Shown: positions 9,410 to 37,235, numbered from the stretch's first letter. The stretch: 45,091 bases of DNA from Patescibacteria group bacterium (GCA_018816385.1 JAHIVK010000010.1:1-45091), one strand, 5' to 3'. The notes: a model not told the origin generated them from the letters alone. Numbers and translations are program-made.

Positions 9410-10717
9410 ATGTCTAGCCAGAGGGTAATTACTGCCATTGATATTGGCACCGACAAGTGTGTGACTCTGATTGCCATTCAAGACGGTGAAACAGAGCAAC
9501 TTAGAATTGCCGGATTTGCCGCTATCCCTTCCAAAGGCATGAAAAAGAGTCAGATCATTGATCTGGAGCAGGTGCTGTTAACCTTGAATGAAAGTTTAGA
9601 TGCCGCAGAACGAATGGCCGGTTTAGAAGTTAAACAGGCATATATTTCTGTAACTGGTGGGCATATTTCATCTCAAAACTCCCGCGGAGTGGTAGCCGTA
9701 GCTTCGCCCGATCAAGAAATTACCGCCGAGGATGTGACTCGAGTGATTGAAGCCGCCCGAGCTATTTCTTTGCCTTCGGACCGAGAAGTGATTCATGTCA
9801 TTCCCAAAGATTTTTCTGTTGACTCTCAAACTGGCATTAAAGATCCAGTGGGGATGACTGGCATCCGTCTGGAAAGCGAAGCTCATATTATCACTGGCCT
9901 GTCTCCATCCCTCCGCAATACCGAAAAATGCATTCACGACCTAGGCATTGAGATTGAAGGGTTTGTCTTTAGCGGATTGGCTTCTTCTCAAGTAGTCTTA
10001 ACCGAAACCGAAAAAGAGCTGGGTGTAGTGGTGATTGATATTGGAGCAGGTTCCACGTCCATGTCTGCTTTCGTGGATGGATCTTTGGAGTTTTCTTGCT
10101 CCTTGCCCCTGGGAGCCCGTCATATTACTCAAGATATTGCTTTAGGTTGCCGGGTGAGTTTGGATGCGGCGGAACGTATCAAAACTCACTTGAGTTTAGA
10201 CAAAACTGCCCAAATGATACCCCTACCTGGAGAGATCAAGCCTGACTTTAATAAACGTCGACGTCAAGCTGATCAACTTCACTTGAGCGATCTCAATCTA
10301 GGAGATGACTCCGAAGTCTATTCCAAAAGAAGTATTATTGATGGCATCATGGCTCCCAGACTCAGAGAGATCTTTTCGCTGGTGGGCGAAAAACTGGAAA
10401 CTAACCAATTATTTCCTTTGGTGCCGGCTGGATTGGTAATTACTGGCGGGGGAGCCAAAACCATTAGCATTTGTGATGTGGCCAAGAATACTCTCAAACT
10501 ACCCGCCCGAATTGGTCAACCTACGGCTATTCCAGGTCTGTTAAGTGATGTGCAAGACCCAGTTTTTGCCACTGGCGTCGGCCTGCTGGTTTTTGCTAGC
10601 AAACGCCTGGGTGGCGAAACTCACAATGGCTTTTCTTTCTCTGCCTTGACTAAAAATTTTTCCTTGTCAAAATTGAAACAACAAGTGGGCAAGTTTTTTA
10701 AATCCATTCTACCGTAG
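9410..10717 (+). CDS. ftsA: Cell division protein FtsA (actin-like ATPase)
   Basis: AIDIGTDKC, VVIDIGAGSTSMS and ITGGGA phosphate-binding motifs. Confidence 0.93.
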   Translation: MSSQRVITAIDIGTDKCVTLIAIQDGETEQLRIAGFAAIPSKGMKKSQIIDLEQVLLTLNESLDAAERMAGLEVKQAYISVTGGHISSQNSRGVVAVASPDQEITAEDVTRVIEAARAISLPSDREVIHVIPKDFSVDSQTGIKDPVGMTGIRLESEAHIITGLSPSLRNTEKCIHDLGIEIEGFVFSGLASSQVVLTETEKELGVVVIDIGAGSTSMSAFVDGSLEFSCSLPLGARHITQDIALGCRVSLDAAERIKTHLSLDKTAQMIPLPGEIKPDFNKRRRQADQLHLSDLNLGDDSEVYSKRSIIDGIMAPRLREIFSLVGEKLETNQLFPLVPAGLVITGGGAKTISICDVAKNTLKLPARIGQPTAIPGLLSDVQDPVFATGVGLLVFASKRLGGETHNGFSFSALTKNFSLSKLKQQVGKFFKSILP

Positions 10718-10766
10718 GAAATTTGTTGGCGATATGTATTCGAAGGTCACAAACGACCAGATGTTG

Positions 10767-10802
10767 TGATAGAATATGATACGTTATTAATATAACAAGG
10801 AG
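10767..10802 (+). promoter_or_regulatory. Extended -10 (tgatagaat) plus AAGGAG Shine-Dalgarno upstream of the 10811 ORF
   Basis: tgtgatagaat at 10765-10775. aaggag at 10797-10802, 8 nt before the ATG. Confidence 0.4.
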
Positions 10803-10810
10803 AAAAGCGT

Positions 10811-11074
10811 ATGGGAAGCGAAGCTTTACATCAGGGCGAGGGAGCTTTCTTTTTAGAAGATGATGACACTCCACTCTCTGCAGAAGAATTGGCGGAGCGC
10901 TTGCATTTTTCTTGGGCGGATGTCACTTTGGCTTTACGAGAAAATAACTGTCCACGGGTGCCTCAAGATCGATGCGCGGCTGTTAGAGCCTTACCAGCTC
11001 ATTTGTCGAAAGAGGAATATGCGCGAAGAGGCCTATCAAGTTTGCTCTACGTTACAACAACACCTCCAAAATAA
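10811..11074 (+). CDS. Hypothetical acidic small protein, first gene of the ftsA-ftsZ insertion
   Basis: Good SD and promoter-like sequence. No recognisable domain. Confidence 0.5.
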   Translation: MGSEALHQGEGAFFLEDDDTPLSAEELAERLHFSWADVTLALRENNCPRVPQDRCAAVRALPAHLSKEEYARRGLSSLLYVTTTPPK

Positions 11075-11306
11075 TTTGTTTCAATTAATTTTTCGTCACG
11101 CCCAATTTTCACACTTAACCCAAATCTGTTTTTAATATCAGGTGAAAGAGACTTACTTCTGGGTGACTAGCTAGGTTTGTCGATCTGCCCAGTAACCAAA
11201 TTTCTTCAGAGACCAAACTCAAACAGCAAACTAGCAAGTTTATCAAATCACTTTTACCATAATTTGTTTTTTTGTAATTAGTATTACTCTTTTAGTCAAG
11301 GGTTGT

Positions 11307-11522
11307 ATGCCAAAATATAATGTTAGAAAAAAGTTTGGCAAAAGGCTAAGAGTGCTTCGAAAGAGCGCTCAGTTGTCCCAGGAGGATTTGGGTTTTAAAG
11401 CCAATATCCACAGGACTTATATTGGTGCGGTCGAAAGGGGAGAGCAAAATGTCTCTCTTGATAATATTTACAGACTAGCCAAAGCACTTAAAGTTGAACT
11501 AAAAGAACTATTTATTTTTTAA
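11307..11522 (+). CDS. XRE/Cro-C1 family helix-turn-helix transcriptional regulator
   Basis: LRKSAQLSQEDLGFKANIHRTYIGAVERGEQNVSLDNIYRLAKAL is a classic HTH_3 pattern. Confidence 0.85.
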   Translation: MPKYNVRKKFGKRLRVLRKSAQLSQEDLGFKANIHRTYIGAVERGEQNVSLDNIYRLAKALKVELKELFIF

Positions 11523-11830
11523 TTAGTCTGCAAAAAGAGGGCTTGGTTTTTTATTTCCTGAGACAGTTTATAACTATCACAGTGCGATAAGTGACCCAAA
11601 TAAGATTGCAGTGCTTCTTCCAACGCTTCAGGAGGAAGGATCCCGTCTTTAATCTTTTGAGAGGTTTCAGCCATTTTTCTGAAGATTCTCCTTTTAGTTT
11701 TTGTTCTCGGTAAAATATATTTTGGAAAAATGACATATCCTAGGAAATCAACTCCCATGTAGTAATTTACAACATGAATCTTTTTTGGGTGGAGTGTTAG
11801 CTTTAATTCATTTCTTAAAAATTTTTCCAT
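11519..11830 (-). CDS. DGR reverse transcriptase, C-terminal piece (motifs 6-7 and thumb)
   Basis: LKLTLHPKKIHVV...GVDFLGYVI. Its ATG directly follows the in-frame TAA of the upstream piece. Confidence 0.75.
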   Translation of the reverse strand: MEKFLRNELKLTLHPKKIHVVNYYMGVDFLGYVIFPKYILPRTKTKRRIFRKMAETSQKIKDGILPPEALEEALQSYLGHLSHCDSYKLSQEIKNQALFLQTN

Positions 11831-12556
11831 TTACAATAAAATTTCTTGCAAGTATTTCTGATTGTCAGACATAACCACAAAATCATCTGCGTAGCGTATG
11901 TAGTATTTTGCCCTGAGTTTATGCTTTACAAATTGGTCCAGGGGATCCATGTATATGTTAGCGAAAAGTTGTGATGTCAAGTTACCTATCGGCATACCAG
12001 AATTTTGGTCTGGAGATTTAAAGCTGGTAATTATTTCTGTCAGTAGGTTGATAAAATTATCATCTAAAATTCTTTTTCTCAGGAGTTTAATTAACACTTC
12101 GTGATCCACGTTAGCAAAAAACTTTCTTATATCACACTTGAGAACAAACAAATTAGAAGTATTGTTTTTACTGGCTTTCCTAGCCATTCCGATAAATGTC
12201 TGAACAGCCTTGTGTGTACCCTTACCTTTTCGACACGAGTAGGAGTGAGGATAAAATGTTGGGTCAAAAATCTCCTCCAGCACTTTGCTGGTAAGGTGGT
12301 GAACAACCCTATCTTTTACACAGGCTTTATGAATGTGGCGAACTTTCGGATCCCTTACATAAAATTCCTGATACCCGCCATGACTGTAAGTTTTTTCTTC
12401 AAGCTCATTGTGCAAACTAAAGATGTTGTCTTCTAATTCCCGCTCAAATATTCCAACGTCCACTTTCTTTCTTTTTCCTTTGGCAAATTCTTCCCATGCT
12501 TGAAACAAGTTTTCAAGTGTTATAATCTCAGTGTAATTATTATGCCAGATTCTCAT
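11831..12556 (-). CDS. DGR reverse transcriptase, N-terminal piece (motifs 1-5), ending at an in-frame TAA
   Basis: YADDFVVM (YxDD) and the IGNLTSQLFANIY motif (I/LGxxxSQ, typical of DGR RTs). N-terminus is LENLFQAWEEFAKGKRKK. Confidence 0.85.
   Translation of the reverse strand: MRIWHNNYTEIITLENLFQAWEEFAKGKRKKVDVGIFERELEDNIFSLHNELEEKTYSHGGYQEFYVRDPKVRHIHKACVKDRVVHHLTSKVLEEIFDPTFYPHSYSCRKGKGTHKAVQTFIGMARKASKNNTSNLFVLKCDIRKFFANVDHEVLIKLLRKRILDDNFINLLTEIITSFKSPDQNSGMPIGNLTSQLFANIYMDPLDQFVKHKLRAKYYIRYADDFVVMSDNQKYLQEILL
12500..12526 (+). promoter_or_regulatory. Sigma70-like promoter TTGAAA-N15-TATAAT for avd, embedded in the RT 5' coding region
   Basis: ttgaaa at 12500-12505 and tataat at 12521-12526. 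The spacing is a little short. Confidence 0.3.
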
Positions 12557-12928
12557 AAAAACTTTGAACCGGGCAGGCTTAACTTAGACATACCGGTTTT
12601 TCAAAAAACATACGAGCTTTACAAATTCTTTTATCAACTTGTCGCTCATTTTCCTAAAAAGGATCGGTATGCTATTGGACAAAAAATTGAAAGTGGTCTT
12701 TTGGGATTGATAGAAGACATTATTACTGCCAGCCAACTTTCAAAGTCTGAAAAAGTACCTACCTTGCAGAATGCCAGTATCAAGCTTGATGTGCTTAAAG
12801 TTCTCATACGCTGTTGTAAAGACTTAAAGATTATTGATAACAAAAATTACCTCCTTCTTGAATCCAAACTACAAGAGATAGGTAAAATGCTTGGCGGTTG
12901 GATCAAAGCATCTACCTATCGTTCTTGA
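12542..12928 (+). CDS. avd: Four-helix-bundle protein (23S rRNA IVS protein family), Avd-like DGR accessory protein
   Basis: FQKTYELYKFFYQLVAHFPKKDRYAIGQKIESGLLGLIEDII pattern. Lies between the RT and TR but on the opposite strand. Confidence 0.75.
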   Translation: MPDSHKNFEPGRLNLDIPVFQKTYELYKFFYQLVAHFPKKDRYAIGQKIESGLLGLIEDIITASQLSKSEKVPTLQNASIKLDVLKVLIRCCKDLKIIDNKNYLLLESKLQEIGKMLGGWIKASTYRS

Positions 12929-12937
12929 ACCACTTGC

Positions 12938-12957
12938 AACCTGGGCAGGTTTTTTAT
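12938..12957 (+). terminator. Weak hairpin aacc-tggg?-ggtt followed by a T5 run after avd
   Basis: aacctgggcaggtttttt. The stem is short. Confidence 0.3.
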
Positions 12958-12970
12958 TCGTCGAGATAAG

Positions 12971-13095
12971 ACTACAGCGACACGGAAGCCAACGTTGTCA
13001 TTCGAGTTCGACGGATGATTCCAATTGGCGTTGGCGGCACCACCATTGTCGGAGTTGCCAACGATGACACGGTTAGGATCGCCGTCATCACGTTT
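12971..13095 (-). repeat. DGR template repeat (TR)
   Basis: Aligns without gaps to 13566..13690 (offset 595). On the minus strand it reads RDDGDPNRVIVGNSDNGGAANANWNHPSNSNDNVGFRV, with 9 AAC/AAT codons. Confidence 0.9.
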
Positions 13096-13489
13096 CGCAT
13101 TGCTTACTTTCTTTCCCGAAAAGGAGTTCAGTCCCTTTCGTTATTACCACTGGCCTCTTTAATGTACTACCTTATGTTTGTTGTCTTTTCCAAGATTGTT
13201 TCTAATTATTTAGAAACTCTCTCCTGTATTTGATTTGGCTCAAGGTTCCCTGAGTCCTTCAAAAGTAAGCAAGTAGTTTTATCTCTCCTTTATCAACACT
13301 CTCTTTGCAACCGTAACCACAAAGACTCTGGCCTTGCTCTAAAGAAGAGCGATTTTGTGAAACATAAGCGTACTCATATTTTCATTAACAAAATCTAAGT
13401 TGCAGTATAAAGAATGAAGGCACTAAAAATCAAGGGTAATTGCTATCTATAGACATCAATAAATTGAGGGCGAAATAAAATTACAAATC

Positions 13490-13506
13490 GACCCGCTACG
13501 CGGGTC
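13490..13506 (-). promoter_or_regulatory. GC-rich hairpin gacccgc-tac-gcgggtc downstream of the VR and the target-gene stop
   Basis: 7-bp perfect stem, about 47 nt past the stop at 13553 on the minus strand. Confidence 0.45.
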
Positions 13507-13552
13507 AAGGGACCAAGTAACAAAAATCCAAAAGAACCAAGAATTCAAGAGA

Positions 13553-16150
13553 TCAAGTTCCAAGAACTACAACGACACGGAAGCCAACGTAGCCAAGCGA
13601 GTCCGACGGACGAAGCCAACGGGCGCGGGCGGCACCACCAGGGCCGGAGTGGCCAACGAGGACACGGACAGGACCGCCGCCATCACGATATTCATCCTCA
13701 GTCCATTCATATGTATTCGTGCCAACCTCCATGCGATTTAGAAGCATATTTAGTTCAGCTGCAGTAGGCATGCGAACTTCTAAATTTGAGGGGAGACCTA
13801 GTTTGGATAAAATCTCTGATTTATTTCTTACAATATCTCCATGAGCTGTATCCCAAGTAACATTAAATCTATTAGTATGACCAAGCTCTGCACTTATCAT
13901 TGTTTCGTCATAGGTGTCCCTAGACATCGGTTTTGGCATGACCTCCGTAACAAACCAGCCTCCTTTGTTGTATATTTCGGGAAAGTCGATTTTTCCACTT
14001 TTGACTTCTTCCCAATACCATTTTCTAAGGAGTCTCCCCACGGTGTGATCATCCCTTTCGGCAGGAGATAAAGATTCGTACACTCGTAATCCTGGATATC
14101 TTTCTTCAATCCTGGCTAAAAAGTCATCAACATCCATTCTCCTCAAGTCATCCGGCGTGCCTATATCTAGCTTAGGAATACTTCTTACTCCAATGTGTTC
14201 AGTGTCGTTAGCAAACTTCTCAAGTGCTTCCAAGGGGATACTTCTTGGTAGTTCTGGAATCTCAAATACCGATCCGGAAGCTGGTTTCAGCTTATCTCTC
14301 CAACTTTGTTCCTCATCACGCTGAAATTCAGATGATGATGTGGTTTCAGATGAAGCTGTCCCCATTGGATTTTCACTGCTCAGTGCTACAGCACCTGCCA
14401 TTTCAGAGGGCAGCACATACCCTTTTTCTTCCGCTGGTTTATTTATTGTAACTTTGATCTCGCCCGAAGCATTAGTAATTAAATCAAAGGCGCTGAGGAT
14501 TTTCTGAAGTGTTTTACGTTCCTCCGGAGTGCTGAGAGTCTTTGGATCTCTGACGAATTCACCGAGTTTTGATTGCATATACTCGCCAAAATTCTGTCCA
14601 CGGGCCTGTGCAAGCTCCCATTCACTAAATAGCTTAAACAAGGTGCCGGGATCTAAAAAGTTCGTATTTAGTGTTGTCTCAGTGTTTCCTTGAGGGTCAA
14701 TACCCAGCGCAGTTTTTATTTCTGGCTTGAGGCCTTCAAAGTCTCTATTGTGGACCTTTTGCATCAGTTCTGCAGCTTTGCACAATTTCTCTATATATTT
14801 CAGCTCAGATGCCCCAAGTTTCAAAACGCCGTTTTCTTCAATGAGTTTGGCCAGGATAATATCATTCATTTCCGATGCGGGCATGTAACTTACTTCAACA
14901 CCCGTCAGCTCTCTCAGAATTGCCGGATCCATTTCCTCACGCTGTTTAGTACGCTCATCTTTAGGATTACCTGTGAGAATGGTGATGAAGTTTTCAGTAA
15001 TGTCAAATACTTGTCCATTAAATCCGGGTATTTGAATTTGATCACCAGGTTTTGCTCCCATCATGAACTTTTCTGCTAACTGAGTCCTAGTTGCACCACC
15101 AGTGTACTCATCACCAAGATATCCAACTCTTCTTTCTAAGGCTCTAGGAATGGGTCCTGGTCTTACAGCACTTTGAACATTTCCATCCTCACCTGTCCAC
15201 AATTCACGATAGCCAAATAAATCTCTTGGAGTTGTTCCTTCATGCCAGTTTACAATCTCGTATCCACCAGTAAGGGAGTTTAAAACATAAATTCCCAACT
15301 GGGTCTTGCCAGTACCAGTAGATCCAACTAAAAATATTTTGTTTCCTGCGATTGCCTCTCGTTTAATTCTATCAATGAGCTGAATCCTTGAAGGTGTTAA
15401 CACAACTCGAGATTCTCTGAGTTGCCTTTTATATTCAAGCAGTTTTTGTGTTTCTAGATAACCTAATGTTTCGGCAGAGGCCGTTTGCTCTATACCTTTT
15501 CGGGTTGACTCCAACCCATCTACCTTCCCTTGAAATTGAGTAATTTGATCTGCCGTACTTTGGACAAGCTTTCCATGATCTCGTTTGCTTGACAGATAGC
15601 GTGTATAAATAGCTTGTCGCAATTTACCCGCAACCCTGTCAATGTCACGCACATCCTTCATTGGCTTTCTTGCGGCTTGATAAAAACCGACTTCTCTTGC
15701 TAATTCTTCCTGAAACTTTTCTCTAACCTGAGGATGGGAAAGGATTTCTCCAATCTTGGTTTTTATTTCTTTTCGATGGTCAGGATTGTTTGTCTGATCA
15801 CTTGTAGTGTTATTGACCTCATTTTGGGAGGCGCCAGTAAAAACCTGTCGTACAGCATTAACTCTCTTATTGGATGAAAAAGAATCATCCAGTTGAGCCT
15901 CCAAATCACGCAAGCTTATATCGCCGTTAATTTGGATTTTGGAGGTGTCTCCCGCAGACGGACGAAAGTATTCTTCCATGTATCCCAGAACGGCAAAACA
16001 TCGATCTTCAACATTTTCGTTTGAAAGATGTTCTGGATTTTCTTGGAGGGGCAAGTTTTCTGTAAACCGGCTGACTGACAACGGAGCTACACGGTACCGC
16101 GCTTGTTGTATTTGTTGTGTTGAAAATGATTCAGACGATGATTCTGGCAT
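13553..16150 (-). CDS. DGR target protein: AAA+ (MoxR/AAA_5-like) ATPase with a C-terminal C-type-lectin/FGE-like variable domain
   Basis: Walker A LVGSTGTGKT, ILTGNP, DPAILRELTGVEVSY. C-terminal features VRMPTAAELNML, YEWTEDEY, and GFRVVVV at the end. The VR covers the last ~40 codons. Confidence 0.85.
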   Translation of the reverse strand: MPESSSESFSTQQIQQARYRVAPLSVSRFTENLPLQENPEHLSNENVEDRCFAVLGYMEEYFRPSAGDTSKIQINGDISLRDLEAQLDDSFSSNKRVNAVRQVFTGASQNEVNNTTSDQTNNPDHRKEIKTKIGEILSHPQVREKFQEELAREVGFYQAARKPMKDVRDIDRVAGKLRQAIYTRYLSSKRDHGKLVQSTADQITQFQGKVDGLESTRKGIEQTASAETLGYLETQKLLEYKRQLRESRVVLTPSRIQLIDRIKREAIAGNKIFLVGSTGTGKTQLGIYVLNSLTGGYEIVNWHEGTTPRDLFGYRELWTGEDGNVQSAVRPGPIPRALERRVGYLGDEYTGGATRTQLAEKFMMGAKPGDQIQIPGFNGQVFDITENFITILTGNPKDERTKQREEMDPAILRELTGVEVSYMPASEMNDIILAKLIEENGVLKLGASELKYIEKLCKAAELMQKVHNRDFEGLKPEIKTALGIDPQGNTETTLNTNFLDPGTLFKLFSEWELAQARGQNFGEYMQSKLGEFVRDPKTLSTPEERKTLQKILSAFDLITNASGEIKVTINKPAEEKGYVLPSEMAGAVALSSENPMGTASSETTSSSEFQRDEEQSWRDKLKPASGSVFEIPELPRSIPLEALEKFANDTEHIGVRSIPKLDIGTPDDLRRMDVDDFLARIEERYPGLRVYESLSPAERDDHTVGRLLRKWYWEEVKSGKIDFPEIYNKGGWFVTEVMPKPMSRDTYDETMISAELGHTNRFNVTWDTAHGDIVRNKSEILSKLGLPSNLEVRMPTAAELNMLLNRMEVGTNTYEWTEDEYRDGGGPVRVLVGHSGPGGAARARWLRPSDSLGYVGFRVVVVLGT
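13566..13690 (-). repeat. DGR variable repeat (VR) at the 3' end of the target CDS
   Basis: By my manual alignment of 122 positions, 22 differ from TR. Of those, 21 are TR adenines on the coding strand, changing 15 codons, all nonsynonymously. Confidence 0.9.
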
Positions 16151-16171
16151 ATTTAGTATTATACAAATTTT

Positions 16172-18850
16172 TTACAGTTTAGATAAGTGCTTCATAAGTA
16201 ACTTGTGCCTCGTGAGTGTTGCTTGTCTAACATCATCAATAACCACGGCAGCCTCTGAATCAGCTGGATCATGACAAACCACCTTAATATCTTCTGCAGC
16301 ACTGCCAAAACCAATCCCTTGCACAATTACACCCTGTGACCTCAGTTGAGTAATTAAGGCAACACATTGATCTTGACTCGATACATCTCCGTCAGAAACA
16401 ATCGTCAATATTTTACTCCTTTTTCCTTGTTTGATTTGCGCCAGCGTTTCTGGATCAAGAGAGTCTTGGTATTTTTGCAACGCAACAACCAACCCTTCTG
16501 AGCTTTGATTTTTAGCCTGTAACTCTCGATCCAAATCCACCAGTATCTTTTCTGACATTATGTCTTCTTTTTCCACCACTTCAGTTGCCCCACTACCAAA
16601 GGTTATTTGTGTAGATCGAATTTGTAGTGGCGTTCTCATCCTTGTTTTGTTTCGAGAATGTTGAAAACGCTCATTGAGCTTCATAATGTTATAGCTAGAG
16701 CTGAGAACCATCTTTTTCATTTCTTCCTCAGCGCTACCTGACATGGATCCAGAAATATCCAGCACAAAATCGTCATCGACTTCAAATACTTCTATAATTT
16801 CTTTTTGTTTTTCATAGCTTCTTTGATAGCCGGATGGGTCATCATCTTTGGAGCGAACATCAATGTAGGCTGTCACTGGATCATCTAGAAATTCACCCTC
16901 ACTTTGCCTGACTGGCCCCTTGTATGCCTGATATGGCACCTCACGTCTTTTGTATAAAAGGTCGAACAAATCACACCATTCCTGGTATAAAGTGCTAGGT
17001 CGCTTACGAATGCTCATTTCAGGAGGAACAGGTGTGTTGTTTATGTTATTAATCCAGCTCTCCAGTCTTTTCCACTGCACATAATCCACCCCTTTTTCTT
17101 TTTGAAATTGTTCTGCCGCACGTTGCTCTGGTGTTGGATCTGGTTGAGGTTTTTGATCTAAACCATCAATTAAGTCTTGGTACATTCGTTCTACTTCTTC
17201 AGGACTAAGCTCCGGTTGTTCTATTAGAGAATCACCAAAATCTCCATCAAGCGGCTGATTGGGTTCTGACTGATCATCTTGAAAATCATCCTTTTGCTTG
17301 GGAGGAGTTGCATCCATCCCTCTATGGGTCCACTTCTGACTATCTTTATTCCAAACTTCTCCCCAGGCATGTTTATCAACGCCCGGTGCCTCAACCACGG
17401 TAAAATCAAAACGAGGATCTTTACTGTTGATATAAGGACCAGTTGGAATTCGGGACGCAATCCCAAGGCGTTTACATAGTTCATCTCTAAAAATGTTTGC
17501 CCAGTAACAATGTGCTATCCCTGTCTCGGCAATTTTTGTCCAAAGATTACTACCCGCACTCAAATACGCCGCGTCTATTTGGCCAATTTCAGATTCATCA
17601 TTTGGATAACGAAGTTTTTTATGTATATATCGAACAATCTCTCGTGCCTTTTGTACATCGCTCATCCAATTTTGAGCTAACAGATCGTCAACAAGCGTTT
17701 GAGTTTCTGGATCAAGAGCTCCTCCAGTAGGAGAAACGTCTCGATCTATGGGAGGGCGGTTTAGTTTATTTGAATCATTCTCGCTCATCACAAAATCAAA
17801 AGAGAACTCAACAACTTCTGAGGAAACACTCCCAACTCTGGGTTCCAGTGAAATAATGCCTAATTCATCCCGCATTAAATGAAACGCGCCAGCGGGCTTA
17901 ATTGAACCAACAATTGGTAACGCTCCATAAGGAAGTTTTATTAGTGTTTCCTTACCTGGACTCATTTTTCCCCGATAATTTCTTTGTGTTTGCCAAACTG
18001 CCTCATCATCCAGAGGTTCTTCAACGTCCCATGTTTCTTTTACACCCGCTTCTTTAACAATTTGTTTTGAGTTGGGATCATAACGACAAACCTGTTCGCG
18101 ATAATATCCGCCATAAAAAGGATTAACACGTACCATAATGTCTGATTCTTGGATGGCTTCTTTGCTTCTTGCAACATCTTGTGTTTGTGATGGACGATAC
18201 TCAAATTGCTGAGAGCGGCCAGTTTGTCTGTCTACTTCCGATAATTCATCTAATAGTGGTTTCAGATACTGCTCATAATTTTGTCCATCGAATTTTAAGT
18301 AACGACCGGAAGCAATATAATCAACTAGGCTTTTCCCTTGGGGAGTAGGAATTCGCGAGATCGCGTCTTTGACTTGTGGTGATAACTCATCAGGGTATTT
18401 TCCTGTCAAAACATATGAGTCAAGTGCCCAATTGAATTCTTGCGAAAGTGTTTGGTTCTGTGGACCAATAGGACGGTCGTGAAGAACTTGTTGTCCACTC
18501 TCTCTCAGACAAGCCAATCCCTGCCAACGTAGAACTGGCTCTGTAGCATTTGGGTGTCTTTTAGAAACATCAATAAGCACATTTGCGTCTGTCCTCACTG
18601 CTTGAGTGAGACCAATGTGAGTAGCCACTTGCCTGAGCGCCGCAAAGCGAGCAGTATCTTCATCGGAATATAAAGAGGTATTTACTCTAAGTTCGGTTTT
18701 GTCTTCGCTCCAGGATAGCCTTGCCCCTTTATCTCTTTCTGTTATTTCAACTCCACCCAATAATCTATGACGCTCCGGCAGAGAGTTTTGATTCTGTTCT
18801 GGTATTTTTCTTTGAGATCGTTCATTCTCATTCATATCTGGTTTTTCCAT
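16172..18850 (-). CDS. Transglutaminase-like cysteine protease domain plus C-terminal von Willebrand factor A domain protein
   Basis: GIAHCYWANIF...GIASRIPTG...KHAWGEVW...GMDATP gives the Cys-His-Asp TGase core. VLDISGSMSG is a MIDAS DxSxS motif, followed by TIVSDGD. Confidence 0.8.
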   Translation of the reverse strand: MEKPDMNENERSQRKIPEQNQNSLPERHRLLGGVEITERDKGARLSWSEDKTELRVNTSLYSDEDTARFAALRQVATHIGLTQAVRTDANVLIDVSKRHPNATEPVLRWQGLACLRESGQQVLHDRPIGPQNQTLSQEFNWALDSYVLTGKYPDELSPQVKDAISRIPTPQGKSLVDYIASGRYLKFDGQNYEQYLKPLLDELSEVDRQTGRSQQFEYRPSQTQDVARSKEAIQESDIMVRVNPFYGGYYREQVCRYDPNSKQIVKEAGVKETWDVEEPLDDEAVWQTQRNYRGKMSPGKETLIKLPYGALPIVGSIKPAGAFHLMRDELGIISLEPRVGSVSSEVVEFSFDFVMSENDSNKLNRPPIDRDVSPTGGALDPETQTLVDDLLAQNWMSDVQKAREIVRYIHKKLRYPNDESEIGQIDAAYLSAGSNLWTKIAETGIAHCYWANIFRDELCKRLGIASRIPTGPYINSKDPRFDFTVVEAPGVDKHAWGEVWNKDSQKWTHRGMDATPPKQKDDFQDDQSEPNQPLDGDFGDSLIEQPELSPEEVERMYQDLIDGLDQKPQPDPTPEQRAAEQFQKEKGVDYVQWKRLESWINNINNTPVPPEMSIRKRPSTLYQEWCDLFDLLYKRREVPYQAYKGPVRQSEGEFLDDPVTAYIDVRSKDDDPSGYQRSYEKQKEIIEVFEVDDDFVLDISGSMSGSAEEEMKKMVLSSSYNIMKLNERFQHSRNKTRMRTPLQIRSTQITFGSGATEVVEKEDIMSEKILVDLDRELQAKNQSSEGLVVALQKYQDSLDPETLAQIKQGKRSKILTIVSDGDVSSQDQCVALITQLRSQGVIVQGIGFGSAAEDIKVVCHDPADSEAAVVIDDVRQATLTRHKLLMKHLSKL

Positions 18851-19043
18851 ATGTCACAAAAGCTCATGAGGTTCAAATTGTTTGTCAACGAAACTCAAGA
18901 GATCCTGCTTTATTATACAAAAAATCTGCGGAAAAGTCTTACAGATGTTGGATAGGTAATTACACGGTTAATTTATGAAGAGCCTACTGGCAATTGATTT
19001 AGTAATTAATAATGATACACTTTTATACAGAATCTAGAATTAG

Positions 19044-19078
19044 AATTAAACCAGCTGTTTTCAAAATTAAACCAGCTG
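19044..19078. repeat. Two direct copies of aattaaaccagctg (each holding the CAGCTG palindrome), starts 21 bp apart, upstream of ftsZ
   Basis: Copies at 19044-19057 and 19065-19078, seen directly. Confidence 0.7.
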
Positions 19079-19114
19079 ATAAACTTGAAGTAGTATTTGT
19101 CAACAACTCAAACT

Positions 19115-20383
19115 ATGGCCCTGGTTAAACCTACCAACACCACTTTTGCCAAGATCAAGGTCGTGGGTGTGGGTGGGGGTGGTGGTAATGCCATCAACAC
19201 TATGATTGAGGGTGGTCAAATTAAGGGCGTAGAATTTATCAGTGTTAACACTGATGCCCAAGCTTTACTAACTTCCAAAGCCGAAACTAAACTTCAAATT
19301 GGCACCAACTTAACCAAAGGTTTAGGTTCTGGAGCCGACCCTGACGTAGGTAGAACTGCCGCCGAAGAATCTTACGACAAAATTAAAGACTTATTGTTTG
19401 ATAGCGACATGGTTTTCATCACTGCCGGCATGGGCGGAGGCACCGGCACGGGAGCTTCACCCATCGTGGCCGAAATTGCCAGGGAAAGTGGCGCTTTAAC
19501 TGTCGGCGTGGTCACCAAACCCTTTGCTTTTGAAAGCGCTCGCCGGATGCAGACTGCCGAAGAAGGAGTCGAAGAACTTAGAGAACATGTGGATGCTTTA
19601 ATTGTCATCCCCAACCAAAGACTGATGGATGTGGTCGATAAAAAAATGACTTTGACCGATGCTTTTAAACTAGCTGACAATGTCCTGGGTCAAGGTGTGC
19701 AAGGCATTTCTGACTTAATCACTATCCCCGGCTTAATCAACGTTGATTTTGCCGATGTCAAAACCATCATGACTGATTCCGGCTCGGCTTTAATGGGTAT
19801 TGGCGAAGCCAGTGGCGAAAATCGAGCCACTACCGCCGCCCGCATGGCCGCTTCCTCTCCATTACTCGAAATTTCGATTGAAGGCGCCAAGGGTGTCTTG
19901 TTTAATATCATGGGCGGACCCGACATGACCATGACCGAGGTTTCAGAGGCTGCCAATATTATTGCCAGTGCCGCCGACCCTGAAGCCAACATCATTTTTG
20001 GCGCCGCTATTGATGAAAGCATGGGTTCTAATATTAAAATTAGTGTCATCGCCACCGGATTTGCTGGCCGAGGTTTTTCTGTATCAGACAGACCTCACTT
20101 TGGTGCCTACTCCAAAGAAGCCAAAAGAAAGCTGGAAGAGGAAAAATCAGGACAAACCATTGATCGGACTCCCAATTCTTTTACCCAACCCATGACGGCC
20201 GGCGAGTTAAGTCAAACTTTCTCTCCATCCCCTCAAGTTTCCATTAATCAACCACTATCTCAAGATGCATCAGGTTTGGAAGATAAACCAAAAGATCAAG
20301 AAAAAAACAAACGATCGGGTTTTGCTAAAGTCTTTTCGGATGACTTCGAAATCCCAGCATTTTTGAGGAACAAGGGCAAGTAG
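19115..20383 (+). CDS. ftsZ: Cell division GTPase FtsZ
   Basis: [11 protein letters not shown] and [12 protein letters not shown] tubulin signature. C-terminal DFEIPAFLR peptide. Start set at the ATG at 19115. Confidence 0.95.
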
Positions 20384-20437: not shown

Positions 20438-20656
20438 ATGAGTAAAATTAACTTAAAAAATGTTGTCTGGAAAGAAGGCAAATATTATGTATCATGGAAC
20501 CTAAACACTGGAGTTTCTAGTTTTGGCGATACCAAAAAAGAAGCCCTTGAGTCTCTTGAGGAAGCTTTGGAGTTGCATTTGGAAGATTTTCCGGCTACGA
20601 AAATCACAAAAGTGGAAAGACCAGATATCGTTCCGCTTAATTTCCAATATGCCTAA
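20438..20656 (+). CDS. hicB: HicB-family antitoxin
   Basis: WKEGKYYVSWNLNTGVSSFGDTKKEALESLEEALELHLE. Overlaps hicA by 8 nt. Confidence 0.75.
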   Translation: MSKINLKNVVWKEGKYYVSWNLNTGVSSFGDTKKEALESLEEALELHLEDFPATKITKVERPDIVPLNFQYA

Positions 20657-20873
20657 ACCAATACCTCTTAAACGAGTCTTGAAAGTCCTCCAAAGTGAGG
20701 GCTTCTTTTTTGTCAAACAGAGAGGGTCACATGCTAAATACAGAAAAGTTGGTGAGCCTACAAGAAATGTAACGGTCAAAACCACAAAAAAAGAAATTCC
20801 TCACGGTACATTCCAATCGATTTTATTGCAGTCTGGATTAAAAGAAAGCGATTTTATAAAAGGAAAAAAATAA
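20649..20873 (+). CDS. hicA: HicA-family mRNA interferase toxin
   Basis: LKRVLKVLQSEGFFFVKQRGSHAKY pattern. Start moved to the ATG at 20649. Confidence 0.8.
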   Translation: MPKPIPLKRVLKVLQSEGFFFVKQRGSHAKYRKVGEPTRNVTVKTTKKEIPHGTFQSILLQSGLKESDFIKGKK

Positions 20874-20964
20874 GTCAAACTTCCCATATACCAAAATGTT
20901 AGGCAAAAATTAAAATTCTCTCCAATCAGCTGATTCTTTTTCTTTCCTGTGTTAAAATCTAGCC

Positions 20965-21255
20965 ATGACAATCCAAAACATTAACGCCAAGGTTATTCCC
21001 GTTTTGAAATCTCACGGAGTGCTTAAAGCATCCCTTTTTGGTTCTGTGGCCAGGGGTGAAGCAAATAAAAAAAGCGATGTTGACTTTTTGGTGGACCTTG
21101 ATGATGATAAAAGCCTACTTGATCTCGTAGACTTGAAATTAGATTTAGAGGAAAAACTTGGCAGAAAAGTTGATATTGTTGAGTATGCCGCAATTAAGCC
21201 GATGCTAAGAAATACAATCATAAGTGAACAAAAAGTGATTTATGAAAAAAGTTAA
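20965..21255 (+). CDS. Nucleotidyltransferase-domain protein (MNT-type), with no cognate HEPN gene
   Basis: LFGSVARGEANKKSDVDFLVD is the GSxxRGx...DxD motif. Confidence 0.8.
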   Translation: MTIQNINAKVIPVLKSHGVLKASLFGSVARGEANKKSDVDFLVDLDDDKSLLDLVDLKLDLEEKLGRKVDIVEYAAIKPMLRNTIISEQKVIYEKS

Positions 21256-21559
21256 ATTAGGTTTAGCTTTTGGTCTTGCTTTTGGGCTAATTGATGCATT
21301 GCTGATGTTGCCAATTCCCATGACCGATAAAGTCATTGCCATTCTTGGCGCTTCAATCAATCGTTTTGCTATCGGCTGGTTCATCCCTGTGACTAATTTC
21401 CCAAAGCCAGGCTGGATGAGGGGTTTAATGATCGGCACCCTTATCAGTTTGCCAGACGCCATTATTACTAAAGCTTATCTTCCGATATTAATTATTGGCG
21501 CGCTGGGCGGAGTCGGTTTAGGCTTATTATCAGATAGGCTAATACAAAGACATAGCTAA
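21242..21559 (+). CDS. Small hydrophobic membrane protein, about 3 TM helices
   Basis: Hydrophobic composition. Overlaps the MNT stop by 14 nt. Confidence 0.5.
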   Translation: MKKVKLGLAFGLAFGLIDALLMLPIPMTDKVIAILGASINRFAIGWFIPVTNFPKPGWMRGLMIGTLISLPDAIITKAYLPILIIGALGGVGLGLLSDRLIQRHS

Positions 21560-21595
21560 TTCTTTTTTGGCCATCAATTTGTTATACTTAACTTT

Positions 21596-21886
21596 ATGGA
21601 CAAAGATAAAATAAGAAAAAAAATCAGCAGTCAATTGCCTCTGTTAAGGCAAAAATATCATGTCAAAAAATTGGGTATTTTTGGCTCTTTTGTGAGAGAT
21701 CAACAAAGAAAAGGCAGTGATGTGGATATGTTGGTGGAGTTGACTTCTCCCATTGGTTTTTTTGATTTTGTACGTTTGGAAAATTTTCTAACTAGAACTC
21801 TAAAGCAGAAAGTTGATCTGGTATTAAAAAAAACCCTTAAGCCGGCTATTAAAGATGACGTGTTAAAAGAAACGATATATGTCTAA
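21596..21886 (+). CDS. mntA: Nucleotidyltransferase antitoxin, MntA-like
   Basis: IFGSFVRDQQRKGSDVDMLVE. Overlaps the downstream HEPN gene. Confidence 0.8.
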   Translation: MDKDKIRKKISSQLPLLRQKYHVKKLGIFGSFVRDQQRKGSDVDMLVELTSPIGFFDFVRLENFLTRTLKQKVDLVLKKTLKPAIKDDVLKETIYV

Positions 21887-22232
21887 AAGAGGCACCACAC
21901 TCTATCTTGAGGATATAAAAAACTCCATCGAAAAAATAGATTGTTATACCAAAGGTTTGTCTTTTAATAAATTTTGCAAAAACACTCTAGTGATCGATGC
22001 TGTGGTGAGAAACCTAACGATAATTGGAGAAGCCACAAAAAATATCCCCAAAGAAATAAAAGTAAAATATCCACAAAGCGCGTGGAGTGAGGCCATAGGT
22101 ATGAGGAACAAAGTTGCTCATGAGTATTTTGGCATTGACGCAAGTATCTTATGGAAAACGATCAAAGAAGATTTACCGATCTATAAAAAACAAATTGCAA
22201 AAATTTTAGACTCATTAGAAAAAAACGGCTAA
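21879..22232 (+). CDS. hepT: HEPN/DUF86 toxin, HepT-like
   Basis: RNKVAHEYFGID is the Rx4-6H HEPN motif. Confidence 0.8.
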   Translation: MSKRGTTLYLEDIKNSIEKIDCYTKGLSFNKFCKNTLVIDAVVRNLTIIGEATKNIPKEIKVKYPQSAWSEAIGMRNKVAHEYFGIDASILWKTIKEDLPIYKKQIAKILDSLEKNG

Positions 22233-29821: not shown

Positions 29822-29919
29822 GATGCAAGGTCAGTTTTGATGCAAGGTCAGTTTTGATGCAAGGTCAGTTTTGATGCAAGTCAGGTTTGATGCAAGTCAG
29901 GTTTGATGCAAGTCAGGTT
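29822..29919. repeat. Tandem 16-bp repeats: gatgcaaggtcagttt x3, then the variant gatgcaagtcaggttt x3
   Basis: Seen directly, in the divergent lepB / wzx-like intergenic region. Confidence 0.9.
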
Positions 29920-34256: not shown

Positions 34257-34340
34257 TCGTCCGTAGCTTAAGCGTACAACCAAATCGTCCGTAGCTTAAA
34301 CATACAACCAGATCGTCCGTAGCTTTAACGTAGGACGAGA
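34257..34340. repeat. Three tandem 28-bp units starting tcgtccgtagctt, abutting the tRNA 3' end
   Basis: Units at 34257-34284, 34285-34312 and 34313-34340. The third can fold as tcgtcc...ggacga. Confidence 0.8.
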
Positions 34341-34412
34341 GCCAGGAAGGGGGATCGGACCCCTGACCTACGGTTTACGATACCGTCGCTCTACCGACTG
34401 AGCTATCCTGGC
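34340..34412 (-). tRNA. tRNA-Thr (anticodon CGU), with no encoded CCA
   Basis: Manual fold: acceptor gccagga/tcctggc, D stem gctc/gagc, anticodon stem acggt/accgt, loop atCGTaa, T stem agggg/cccct, T loop tccgatc. Confidence 0.8.
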
Positions 34413-34695
34413 AAATCAGATCTAAGATGTAGTATAGCTGGTTCAAAACCATTTGTCGCTTTGACTCGAGCTTAAATCTGATATTTGGTTTTGGGATTGC
34501 TATATATCAAAAACTATTCGTTAAATTACGACAGGTATTAAGGTGTTAGCGTTAAGTAGAAATGTCCCCTTTTTAAAAAAGCTTTCATAATTTAGTTTAT
34601 TAAATAACTAAAAGGATGGAGGCCCATAATGAGCGGTTATTTTAACCATGAGTAGAAAAGAAGGGTTAGTGTTTGCAAATAGTAGCTAGTCTTAA

Positions 34696-36411
34696 TTAAC
34701 TAAATAGACTTTCGAGTGATTTAATTATTTTGGTTGCTGTTTTAATTTTTGGTTTTTTAATTTTCCTTTGAAGTTTTTCAAAAAGTGGCAATTTATCCTC
34801 AATTAATGTTGGTTGAATAGGTTCTAGTTGAAACTTTTTGGGCGCGGAGATAATGGTAGTTGATGGATTTAGGCTCTGATTAGACTGCCAATAATTAATT
34901 TGTTCTAAAATATATGCCAAACCGTTTTCAAGATTGTCTTTGTCTTCTAAGCTGGCAATAAAAACAGGATAATCAAGGTCGTTATTTTCTTTTGAGAGTT
35001 TAATGCAAAATACTAGCGACATTTTTTGATTTGCTTGTTGGCTTCCAGAGGTAACAGTTCTAGTGGTAGTACCTTTATAAAAAATTCCTCTTGGAAGGCT
35101 TACTATGGCTTTTAGTTGGCATTTAGAAGAAATATATTTTCTTAAAAATTCATCTTGAGAATTGGCAAAAAAACCTTCTGGTAAAATTAAACAAATTCTT
35201 CCATTTGATTTACAACTTAAAATAGCTTGTTGTATTGAAAGGGCATATTCAGAAGGATTATCTCTCAAGTCTTTGTTGCCCATTTGTTGAGATAAGTGTC
35301 GGTATACTTGATCTAGATCATTGAGTGTATTTTCTGGATCATACTTGTTGCCTCCGGCTGGATTGCTTATCACTATATCCCAACCATTACCGTGGTTGAC
35401 TAAACCATTGGCTTGTTGAATTGGAATATTGTCAATTTCTTCTCCCATGATACCAAAACATAACGCCAGATAGGTTTTAGTAACATAATAGGGTAAATCG
35501 GCAATATCAATGCCCATAATATTTTCTAGTTTAACCCCTGAATTTATGGCCGCGCTAATAAAACTTCCACTGCCACATTCAAAATCAATCACTCTATCTC
35601 GATCTGTAAACTTGACCAAGTTTGCCATGAAACTAACAACTGGGCTGGGTGTAATAAATTGATTTAAGTGAATCCCCTGAAAGGCTCTGAGAATTTGGTT
35701 TTTAAATTCTGTGCCGATATCTTCATTTAAGGATTGTTGCCAATCATATTTAATTAAAAGTTCTCTAATAGCAAGTTGACGGTCGTGATATCCATCCAAA
35801 GAAACATAAGGCTGCTTTGAAACGTAGTTTGACTGGTTTTTTAAGAATTCATATATTTGAAGAGTAACATTTTTAATTATTGCTGGGGTCAATTTTTTGT
35901 CTTTACCCAAAATGTAAACTGAGGCAAGATCATAAAATAACTCTTTAAAAGTTTGTGGAGTAAGAATTGGTTTGTGAGACTCTATACCATAAAGTTTTTT
36001 AAGTTCTTCATAGGTAATAATCTTTTTTAGTTCTTCACTGTCATCAATTATTTGTCCATCTTTTTCATCTCGAAAATACTTATAAAATTTAATTGATCGA
36101 CCAACTGTAGTGGCAAAATATTTCGGAGGATGAGGAGAAAATTGAAGAAATCTAATGTATGAAATTGCTTGAGTTTTAGCATTTTGTTCTGAACCGTTTT
36201 TTCTTTTTGATTCAACTATGAGTAAGGGGCTTTTATTTGCATAGTAAACAATGTCTGGCTCTAATGAACGACCACTTCCAACCGAAATACTGGCATCAGA
36301 TTTGATTTTTAAATTTTCTCTATTTCCGGCTTGAGGATAGCCGTATTGAGAAAAGGCAGGAATAATATCATGAACTATGTATGAATCTTCTGATCGTTTG
36401 GTACTTGACAT
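34696..36411 (-). CDS. Fusion of an N-terminal PD-(D/E)xK (HSDR_N-like) nuclease domain and an N6-adenine methyltransferase-like domain
   Basis: EPDIVYY...LLIVESKRK near the N-terminus. Motif I VIDFECGSGSF. Motif IV reads ISNPAGG instead of NPPY/F. Confidence 0.7.
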   Translation of the reverse strand: MSSTKRSEDSYIVHDIIPAFSQYGYPQAGNRENLKIKSDASISVGSGRSLEPDIVYYANKSPLLIVESKRKNGSEQNAKTQAISYIRFLQFSPHPPKYFATTVGRSIKFYKYFRDEKDGQIIDDSEELKKIITYEELKKLYGIESHKPILTPQTFKELFYDLASVYILGKDKKLTPAIIKNVTLQIYEFLKNQSNYVSKQPYVSLDGYHDRQLAIRELLIKYDWQQSLNEDIGTEFKNQILRAFQGIHLNQFITPSPVVSFMANLVKFTDRDRVIDFECGSGSFISAAINSGVKLENIMGIDIADLPYYVTKTYLALCFGIMGEEIDNIPIQQANGLVNHGNGWDIVISNPAGGNKYDPENTLNDLDQVYRHLSQQMGNKDLRDNPSEYALSIQQAILSCKSNGRICLILPEGFFANSQDEFLRKYISSKCQLKAIVSLPRGIFYKGTTTRTVTSGSQQANQKMSLVFCIKLSKENNDLDYPVFIASLEDKDNLENGLAYILEQINYWQSNQSLNPSTTIISAPKKFQLEPIQPTLIEDKLPLFEKLQRKIKKPKIKTATKIIKSLESLFS

Positions 36412-36442
36412 ATGTTTGGTTTTATCTTATATAATGTCTTTG

Positions 36443-36481
36443 GATCGTGGAACACGATCGGCAAACCCCTCCGGGGGTTTG
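36443..36481. other. Two adjacent GC-rich hairpins (gatcgtg-gaa-cacgatc and caaacccc-tccg-ggggtttg) between DUF3800 and the methylase fusion
   Basis: Seen directly. They separate the overlapped four-gene operon from the fifth gene. Confidence 0.5.
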
Positions 36482-36488
36482 TTTCTTT

Positions 36489-37235
36489 TTATGGAAATAT
36501 TTTTAAACCGTAACCTAAAAAATCATCCTTTGGAAATTGACGATACATTTTAGGCTTGATAATTCTAAAGGCTAGGTTTTCTCTTTCAGGATAAAGAACA
36601 TAATTTGCTAAAGGGTAAGCAATAAGGTCACACAACTGAGTTCCAGCCACATTGGCTTCTTTTTTTTGAAAATCTATTTCTGTAAATCTATTGATCAATC
36701 TGTTTGAATCTACATATTGGGTGCCGTTTGAAATAATAATTTGATATTGATCATGCAATTTAGAGTCTTCGTTTTTCCCTCTTGCCTCAGCAATAACTTC
36801 AACTTTACAGCTCTTAAATTTGTCGGTTAGAAAAATTGTTCTTTCTAAAACAAAAGTAAGAGAAAGATCATAAGGATTGTTTGCTTGAGGCCCATATAAA
36901 TTAATCAGCTTGTCTTTAAGTACAGCGCATGCAATAACTGTAAATTCAGTTTTTTCAATTAGGTTATCTAAATCGTTATAAAAATCACTTCTTAATTTTG
37001 GATCGCCTAAAGACTTGAAAGCAAATTGCCATTTTCTAATATCTCTTGAGTGTAAAATAATATCGGTGTTATCAAAATATTTTAATTTGATTTTATTAAC
37101 GTTGGGGATAAATGTTTGTTTATAATATTCTTTTTCAATAACGCACCCGCATAATAATAAAATAGGAAACTCTTGTTTGGTTGTTTTTAATCCATGATGT
37201 CCTGATTCGTCTAAAAACAGGTAGTAATTCTTCAT
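36489..37235 (-). CDS. DUF3800 family protein
   Basis: N-terminal YYLFLDESGHHG and C-terminal GTQLCDLIAYPLA, the pattern I recall as typical of DUF3800. Confidence 0.65.
   Translation of the reverse strand: MKNYYLFLDESGHHGLKTTKQEFPILLLCGCVIEKEYYKQTFIPNVNKIKLKYFDNTDIILHSRDIRKWQFAFKSLGDPKLRSDFYNDLDNLIEKTEFTVIACAVLKDKLINLYGPQANNPYDLSLTFVLERTIFLTDKFKSCKVEVIAEARGKNEDSKLHDQYQIIISNGTQYVDSNRLINRFTEIDFQKKEANVAGTQLCDLIAYPLANYVLYPERENLAFRIIKPKMYRQFPKDDFLGYGLKIFP

Follow-up and report, generated by a model that had tools for sequence, protein, structure and literature searches.

A probably inactivated diversity-generating retroelement between ftsA and ftsZ of a Pacebacteria-like genome

The contig JAHIVK010000010.1:1-45091 of a Patescibacteria group bacterium (GCA_018816385.1), analysed over its whole length of 45,091 nucleotides and hereafter called the window, carries a diversity-generating retroelement (DGR) whose reverse transcriptase (RT) gene is interrupted by a stop codon. 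Our reading, to which we give a probability of about 0.82, is that of a chromosomal DGR of the clade specific to Candidate Phyla Radiation (CPR) bacteria, lying between ftsA and ftsZ of a Pacebacteria-like genome and inactivated in this window. We infer that inactivation was probably caused by a CAA-to-TAA change in the RT gene, after the YADD motif and before the thumb; the nonsense mutation would therefore make this a frozen copy, one stage in the repeated decay of the DGR among its closest relatives. The element comprises a template repeat (TR), a variable repeat (VR) and the genes and flanking sequences given below.

12972-13095, minus strand: TR, 124 nt with 29 minus-strand adenines, located by repeat search and blastn.
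13567-13690, minus strand: VR, the last 41 codons of the target gene, located by repeat search and blastn.
11834-12556, minus strand: 5' part of the RT gene, 241 codons covering fingers and palm with IGNLTSQ and YADD; Pfam RVT_1, E 1.5e-22.
11831-11833, minus strand: polymorphic nonsense codon TAA, RT codon 242; CAA (Gln) in sister assemblies.
11519-11830, minus strand: 3' part of the RT gene, 103 codons with post-YADD motifs and the thumb; in one frame with the upstream open reading frame (ORF) in the sister contigs L001, L003 and L005.
12542-12928, plus strand: Avd gene, 128 aa; NCBIfam DivGenRetAVD 97.8 bits (cut-off 80), Pfam bAvd E 6e-24.
13553-16150, minus strand: target gene, 865 aa, with an N-terminal region, an AAA_5 ATPase domain (Pfam) and a predicted C-terminal FGE/C-type-lectin domain of ~260 aa that holds the VR.
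16172-18850, minus strand: partner gene, 892 aa, with transglutaminase-fold and VWA domains (Pfam Transglut_core, VWA).
13509-13565, minus strand: array of ~8 phased 8-nt units with the core CTTGR, directly 3' of the VR and mostly past the stop codon; none follows the TR.

An independent repeat search returned a single family of direct repeats in the window, at 12971-13092 and 13566-13687 (122 nt, 82% identity, gap-free, spacing 595), and no second VR-like copy of the TR was present in the 45 kb. Self-comparison with blastn gave 22 mismatches per 122 nt, 21 of which are plus-strand T in the TR copy. Aligned on the minus strand over 124 nt (TR 12972-13095, VR 13567-13690), again free of gaps, the repeats differ at 24 positions, and 23 of these fall on the 29 TR adenines (hypergeometric p = 1.7e-18). 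From TR to VR, A changes to G nine times, to C eight times and to T six times, the remaining mismatch being a C-to-T change. The VR forms the in-frame final 41 codons of ORF 13553-16150 (minus strand), and every altered codon is nonsynonymous. Within the 122 nt, 15 codons carry changes at A sites, among them nine TR Asn codons (AAC or AAT) that read V, H, P, R, R, L, D, L and Y in the VR; a 16th is altered by the non-A change (Ala to Val), and the 5'-terminal codon AAA, which becomes TAT (Lys to Tyr), lies just outside. These results reproduce, by blastn and codon comparison, what an earlier sequence-only reading of this DNA had described: a gap-free pair with 21 of 22 differences at plus-strand T in the TR, 15 nonsynonymous codons and nine recoded Asn codons. 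Mismatches spread over all four bases, which that reading had said would count against it, are not what the computed alignment gives.

The non-A mismatch (12978/13573) is C in the TR and T in the VR, and relatives have C in both repeats; the Ala-to-Val change is for this reason regarded as an ordinary point mutation of the VR. The same observation led us to reject this C/T pair as a marker separating the initiation of mutagenic homing (IMH) site from its counterpart IMH*. The final ~25 nt of the TR/VR homology are identical within relatives and, in the window, one ordinary point mutation apart.

Translated from 12556-11519 on the minus strand, the RT contains both IGNLTSQ and YADD. When its internal stop is replaced by Gln, the protein finds its best match among solved structures in 8ub7_A, a 328-aa RT aligned end to end (E 5e-46), which we take to be the Bordetella DGR bRT, its database label reading only 'Reverse transcriptase'; the 3' part of the gene aligns to about residues 232-316 of this structure. 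The next-best solved RTs, of retron and group II intron type, follow at ~1e-20, 26 orders of magnitude behind. By its best PDB match and its motifs, the protein is assigned to the DGR-type RT family. RT, TR and VR share one strand and Avd is encoded on the other; its gene and the RT gene are arranged head-to-head, with their 5' ends overlapping by 15 nt, and the head-to-head layout is kept across the clade. The two RT motifs and an Avd-like gene had also been noted in the sequence-only reading, and the latter both passes the NCBIfam cut-off for DGR Avd proteins and matches Pfam bAvd. Where that reading spoke of a 'complete' DGR, it has to be corrected, the RT frame being broken by the in-frame TAA at 11831-11833. 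The span it proposed, 11519-13690, does hold TR, VR and RT, but the target gene reaches 16150 and the partner gene 18850.

The TAA, placed after YADD and before the thumb, splits the RT into ORFs of 241 and 103 aa. Five public contigs (L001-L005) encode the exact target protein and are 99.9% identical to the window over 11.5 kb. Codon 242 is CAA in L001, L003 and L005, which have an intact RT of 345 aa, and TAA in the window, L002 and L004; the TAA carriers share a common haplotype with single-nucleotide polymorphisms (SNPs) at 18465 and 10552. TAA also terminates 15 of the 28 long ORFs in the window, the RT itself included, with TGA ending eight and TAG five. Because the haplotype is shared and TAA is the commonest true stop, the codon is interpreted as a polymorphic nonsense mutation rather than as recoding or random error; stop-codon reassignment or readthrough was rejected, as TAA, TGA and TAG all end long ORFs. 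TR and VR are identical in all six assemblies, although these differ by up to 11 SNPs from the window per 11.5 kb and include the haplotypes with an intact RT. The identical VR thus gives no sign of current activity. No second RT was found within the 45-kb window. As a separate observation on the RT gene, a 9-nt patch at 11780-11788 reads CACCCAAAAAAGATT in the window and CACTCCAAAAAAATT in all five sister assemblies (HPKK versus HSKK), the equivalent of two compensating 1-nt indels.

Evidence of past retrohoming comes from a further relative, L036 (JGI 3300078356), whose flanks are 97-99% identical to the window. Its TR is 1 nt off the window TR, and the same change is mirrored in its VR. The two VRs differ at 21 positions, comprising 19 at TR adenines, the one mirrored TR change and one point mutation of the window. 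A-specific transfer from TR to VR has occurred in this lineage, independently in sister strains. Consistent with this, 46 homologues keep the C-terminal scaffold RV.VG.S..GGA...W..P..S....GFRVAV and vary at the TR-Asn positions. VR variation at TR adenines beside a near-invariant TR, as the sequence-only reading had led one to expect, is accordingly seen across assemblies (19 of 21 VR sites and one TR site between L036 and the window); together with the 23 of 24 A-site mismatches and the Avd and RT matches, this comparison upholds its proposal of adenine-specific mutagenic retrohoming.

The closest relatives that have lost the RT keep the target gene and the flanking array and fall into three deletion states. 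L036 retains TR, VR and Avd residues 54-128 (a 75-codon stub); L006, L012, L014 and L016 retain TR, VR and the last 40 Avd codons (97.5% identity); and L011 and L017 have the target gene, with TR, Avd and RT all gone. Collectively, these sequences indicate repeated, progressive loss of the DGR, a pattern that the nonsense allele of the window fits. The TR and ~120-230 nt downstream of it, retained in relatives without an RT, might serve an RT acting in trans.

The AAA profile of the target protein has the midasin AAA ring as its closest solved relative, and hydropathy analysis found neither a signal peptide nor a transmembrane or hydrophobic segment; the protein is predicted to be a cytoplasmic AAA ATPase of the MoxR/midasin type. 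An AlphaFold model of its last 283 residues reached a pLDDT of 87.8, and the top 50 Foldseek matches of the C-terminal domain in the PDB are all FGE/CLec folds, TvpA (2y3c) among them. On this model, the VR is predicted to be displayed on an FGE/C-type-lectin fold. The partner gene stands directly upstream of the AAA gene in all 25 related loci in which that side is present. Its Cys448/His494/Asp513 triad is invariant and a MIDAS-type D-x-S/T-x-S motif is kept in 16 of 16 sequences compared; a PDB sequence search with this transglutaminase/VWA protein gave no match. Parts of both genes stand out in comparison with L036. Identity falls to 64-68% at 14950-15400, in the AAA core, and to 77% at 16550-17000, in part of the transglutaminase/VWA gene, although it is 97-99% elsewhere, and the AAA core of the window resembles the more distant homologues P0014 and P0017. 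These divergent blocks suggest recombinational mosaicism of target and partner.

Tens of thousands of DGRs have been catalogued, and the element described here has many kin. The target has relatives in assemblies that carry the labels Pacebacteria/Paceibacterota, Roizmanbacteria, Peribacteria/Peregrinibacteria and Berkelbacteria. A common gene order is shared by about 20 related CPR loci: transglutaminase/VWA gene, AAA gene with VR, zero to two more VR genes, TR, Avd (reverse) and RT, with A-biased TR/VR pairs. The RT family counts >7,900 homologues at E<1e-30 and is CPR-wide, with Saccharibacteria, Nomurabacteria and Woesebacteria among the names. In the window, the whole cassette (small ORFs, helix-turn-helix gene, RT, Avd, TR, target, transglutaminase/VWA gene) spans ~8.4 kb at 10718-19096, between ftsA (9410-10717) and ftsZ (19097-20383). 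Its site varies among the genomes of relatives, where type IV secretion system (T4SS)/relaxase, recombinase or SNF2-helicase/methylase genes are among its neighbours. According to gene calls on the identical contigs, genes of toxin-antitoxin type follow ftsZ directly at 20523-22232, namely DUF7387/HicA and two nucleotidyltransferase (MNT) genes accompanied by a HepT/HEPN partner.

An enrichment of DGRs in CPR bacteria is on record in the literature. One DGR clade has been described as cellular and confined to Patescibacteria, with targets that are without membrane signals (Roux et al. 2021), P-loop NTPase motifs have been reported upstream of CPR VRs (Wu et al. 2018), and Doré et al. (2024), citing Paul et al. 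(2017), give the fusion of a C-lectin to an AAA ATPase as the most common CPR DGR target and suggest that the variable domain senses a signal which the ATPase then transduces. DGR-coupled vWA-MoxR conflict systems have also been described (Kaur et al. 2020). The element is assigned to the CPR-specific clade, whose architecture was already known; what sets this copy apart is that its RT gene carries a nonsense allele and that it lies between ftsA and ftsZ.

Three other accounts have to be set against this reading. That the locus is not a DGR, its repeats having arisen by ordinary duplication and diverged through point mutation or gene conversion next to an RT of group II intron, retron or defence type, could draw on the best NCBIfam RT model, a group II intron RT/maturase that scores 129 bits against a cut-off of 300, and on public annotations of homologues as 'retron-type' or 'group II intron RT domain'. 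It is effectively refuted by the concentration of mismatches on one template base with all three substitution types, the same TR/VR signature in ~20 related loci, an Avd equivalog above cut-off and the lead of 8ub7 over all other solved RTs; an Rfam scan of the window, moreover, matched only tRNA-Thr, and near the element it detected neither a group II intron or retron RNA nor any other RNA family. A DGR that is complete and active now would require the TAA to be an assembly error, to be read through, to be followed by re-initiation at the ATG that directly follows it (giving a two-piece RT), or to be complemented by another RT. TR, Avd, VR and 3' array are all intact, alleles with an intact RT coexist in related populations, and several DGR loci per CPR genome have been reported (Paul et al. 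2017, as cited by Doré et al. 2024). We nevertheless consider present activity improbable. The same TAA on one haplotype in three independent assemblies is not a random error, and TAA is a working stop in the window; the VR is invariant even among assemblies with an intact RT and bears an ordinary C-to-T change that is absent from the window TR and from both repeats of relatives; and in close relatives the RT has been deleted. Several points do weigh against our reading, for inactivation and for function alike. Consensus assemblies would hide minority VR variants, so that activity cannot be judged from them; the two RT fragments could in principle be made, given the ATG right after the stop, and assemble; and, the window covering only 45 kb, the function could be supplied in trans by an RT encoded elsewhere in the genome. 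The Foldseek scores of the C-lectin domain are modest (E from 2e-3, TM ~0.3), and neither Pfam (FGE-sulfatase included) nor NCBIfam matched it, which is why its recognition needed structure prediction. PADLOC defence models matched neither the ATPase nor the transglutaminase/VWA protein, and the role considered next for this pair is pure inference.

Following the paradigm of the Bordetella phage, a minus-strand transcript containing the TR would be copied by a complex of RT and Avd that misincorporates opposite template adenines; the cDNA would then replace the VR, recoding up to ~20 codons, mostly AAC or AAT, and the recoded residues would lie on the ligand-binding face of the C-lectin domain. 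The ATPase and its transglutaminase/VWA partner might then act as variable sensor, transducer and effector. Alternatively, the pair could have a housekeeping role in chaperoning or remodelling, or could serve interaction with a host, the DGR tuning its substrate range. Pairs of MoxR/midasin-type AAA and VWA proteins are classically chaperone-like maturation systems (RavA-ViaA, CbbQ-CbbO, NorQ-NorD), the cassette forms an island within the division cluster between ftsA and ftsZ, and no PADLOC defence model was matched. This alternative appears unlikely, though well short of negligible: the cassettes of relatives sit in mobile or defence contexts (T4SS/relaxase, recombinases, SNF2 helicase and methylase) and not in the dcw cluster, toxin-antitoxin genes flank ftsZ in the window itself, and DGR-diversified C-lectins with MoxR/VWA modules have been interpreted as antigen sensors (Doré et al. 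2024; Kaur et al. 2020).

The array that directly follows the VR reads, on the minus strand, TCTTGGAA CTTGATCT CTTGAATT CTTGGTTC TTTTGGATT TTTGTTA CTTGGTCC CTTGACCC, that is, YTTGR with an 8-nt period, and is followed by a GC hairpin and then a T-rich tail. Only one site in the 45-kb window, the VR flank, has three CTTG spaced in 8-nt register (expected 0.01), and at least six YTTGR per 80 nt are reached at this site alone, both strands counted. Tandem Repeats Finder did not report the array in the window because its units are too degenerate, and motif counting was used instead. In related loci, the 90 nt that follow a VR hold a mean of 2.8 CTTG, as against 0.5 for the 90 nt following a TR and 0.46 for background. 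Most of these loci have the array after VRs and not after TRs, second and third VRs in non-AAA genes included; strict CTTG motifs are absent 3' of the VR in the subclade L010/L023/L024. The array ranges from three to eight units across the clade (seen in L006, L013, L025-L029, L031, L035, L036 and L038-L041), and the DGR loci that bear it are labelled Pacebacteria, Peribacteria, Berkelbacteria, Saccharibacteria, Nomurabacteria and Harrisonbacteria, with AAA and non-AAA targets. DGRs reached through RT homologues (Saccharibacteria, Nomurabacteria, Harrisonbacteria, L041) likewise carry it after the VR; some of these have short target proteins without a Pfam match, and the target in L041 is an AAA_5 protein. 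The non-redundant loci, 447 kb in total, contain 17 chains of four or more motifs; each is found at the 3' end of a VR-type gene, including two in loci that have lost TR and RT. Aligned with L006, the window shows 98% identity over the array block and 97-100% over the TR, compared with 78-90% over adjacent target coding DNA (~14160-13560) and 58-88% over the spacer.

Where the 3' ends of TR and VR are identical, recognition must extend downstream, and how the VR is told from the TR was left open (Wu et al. 2018). Since TR and VR 3' ends are identical within the relatives of the window, this point makes the array a candidate VR-marking signal. We tentatively propose, at less than even odds, that it may be a target-site signal of CPR DGRs that marks the recipient repeat, standing in functionally for what the Bordetella element has in its IMH/IMH* difference and cruciform. 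Comparison of the array with the TR 3' flank and the antisense-avd region showed no consistent pattern of complementarity, and no mention of the array was found in the DGR literature searched, a search that did not cover Paul et al. 2017.

Compared with the DGR of Bordetella phage BPP-1, the prototype with the order mtd-avd-TR-brt, the element shares an RT of the same family, the accessory protein Avd, a TR of ~120-130 nt whose AAC/AAT codons are changed only at A, and a VR at the 3' end of a gene for a C-lectin fold. Unlike the phage-borne prototype, it is chromosomal and resides in a CPR bacterium; its Avd gene runs on the other strand, placed downstream of the TR and head-to-head with the RT gene; the 3' ends of its TR and VR are almost identical, with no clear IMH/IMH* difference; its VR is followed by the CTTGR array, with a hairpin only ~60 nt away; its target is a predicted cytoplasmic ATPase rather than a tail fibre; and its RT is interrupted by a stop. 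It agrees with the CPR clade ('clade 2' of Roux et al. 2021, and the CPR sets of Paul et al. 2017 and Wu et al. 2018) in having a cellular, CPR-restricted RT family and a P-loop/AAA domain upstream of the VR without a membrane signal, and no architectural difference from that clade is apparent. The vWA-MoxR ternary conflict systems (Kaur et al. 2020; Doré et al. 2024) likewise bring together a MoxR-type AAA protein, a VWA domain, a DGR-diversified FGE/C-lectin and a peptidase-fold (transglutaminase-like) domain in one neighbourhood, all in predicted cytoplasmic proteins. There, however, the C-lectin is usually fused to vWA and the RTs are of clade 5, from multicellular bacteria, whereas here the C-lectin is on the ATPase, the VWA domain is on the transglutaminase-fold protein, and the RT is of the CPR clade, from ultra-small CPR bacteria. 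A third conserved cassette gene, such as would encode the vWA-MoxR-associated protein (VMAP) with its N-terminal effector or adaptor, was not seen among related loci, which were inspected without a VMAP profile search. The resemblance would thus be functional only, and the element is not classed as a member of these systems. For the variable domain, the modelled ~260 aa resemble TvpA of Treponema denticola (2y3c; Foldseek probability 0.98, 248 aligned columns), as well as FGE, PorK, PvdO and CarF. TvpA is a surface lipoprotein, unlike the domain in the window, which is the C-terminus of a predicted cytoplasmic ATPase, and the two share 12% identity (TM ~0.3).

Further features lie around the element.

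11307-11522, plus strand: Xre-type helix-turn-helix gene, 71 aa; Pfam HTH_3, E 2e-14; convergent with the RT gene and overlapping its end.
12932-12950, plus strand: terminator-like hairpin with T-run after avd, between avd and the TR.
13404-13433, minus strand: sigma-70-like promoter match upstream of the TR, 9/12 to consensus; such matches are not above shuffles.
13488-13508, minus strand: GC-rich hairpin (core GACCCGC-GTA-GCGGGTC) with T-rich tail, ~60 nt 3' of the VR.

The helix-turn-helix gene also stands beside the RT in the closer relatives L007, L013 and L018 (tblastn). The promoter match is put forward only as a candidate start of the TR transcript. The GC-rich hairpin is terminator-like in appearance and could be the terminator of the target gene, the counterpart of the DGR inverted repeat, or both; comparable hairpins follow the array in L006, L013, L021 and L010.

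Elsewhere in the window, a region of low GC content (34257-41955; 29-35% versus ~42%) lies beside tRNA-Thr (34339-34412), with a 28-nt tandem repeat (x2.7) at 34257-34332. Two Eco57I-type N6 methylases are encoded there, as are a DUF3800 protein and a 974-aa SNF2 helicase, and from its composition and its methylase and helicase genes the region is probably an integrated restriction/defence island; in L009 and L010, the DGR cassette is flanked by comparable helicase and methylase genes. At 1-96, the very start of the contig and upstream of alaS, stands a perfect 20-nt tandem repeat (GGGGGAGAATGACAATGGGC, x4.8), which may be genuine or an artefact of the assembly end. At 29822-29919, between a 203-aa ORF and a polysaccharide-biosynthesis (flippase-type) gene, there is a 17-nt tandem repeat (GATGCAAGGTCAGGTTT, x5.9, 97% matches).

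As a DGR, the element adds little, the enrichment of DGRs in CPR bacteria and the ATPase/C-lectin target having been reported already. Around one target, it belongs to a natural decay series that runs from an intact RT, through an RT nonsense allele in the same population and deletion of RT and avd with the TR kept, to target and array only, a series useful for timing the switch-off of hypervariation and the fixation of a VR. The VR-specific array is a testable candidate for the feature by which this clade separates VR from TR where their 3' ends are identical. In ~25 CPR loci, often in a mobile or defence context, the diversified ATPase is linked to a transglutaminase/VWA protein with intact triad and MIDAS-type motif, and this linkage supports the idea that CPR DGRs may tune intracellular sensor-effector modules rather than surface adhesins.

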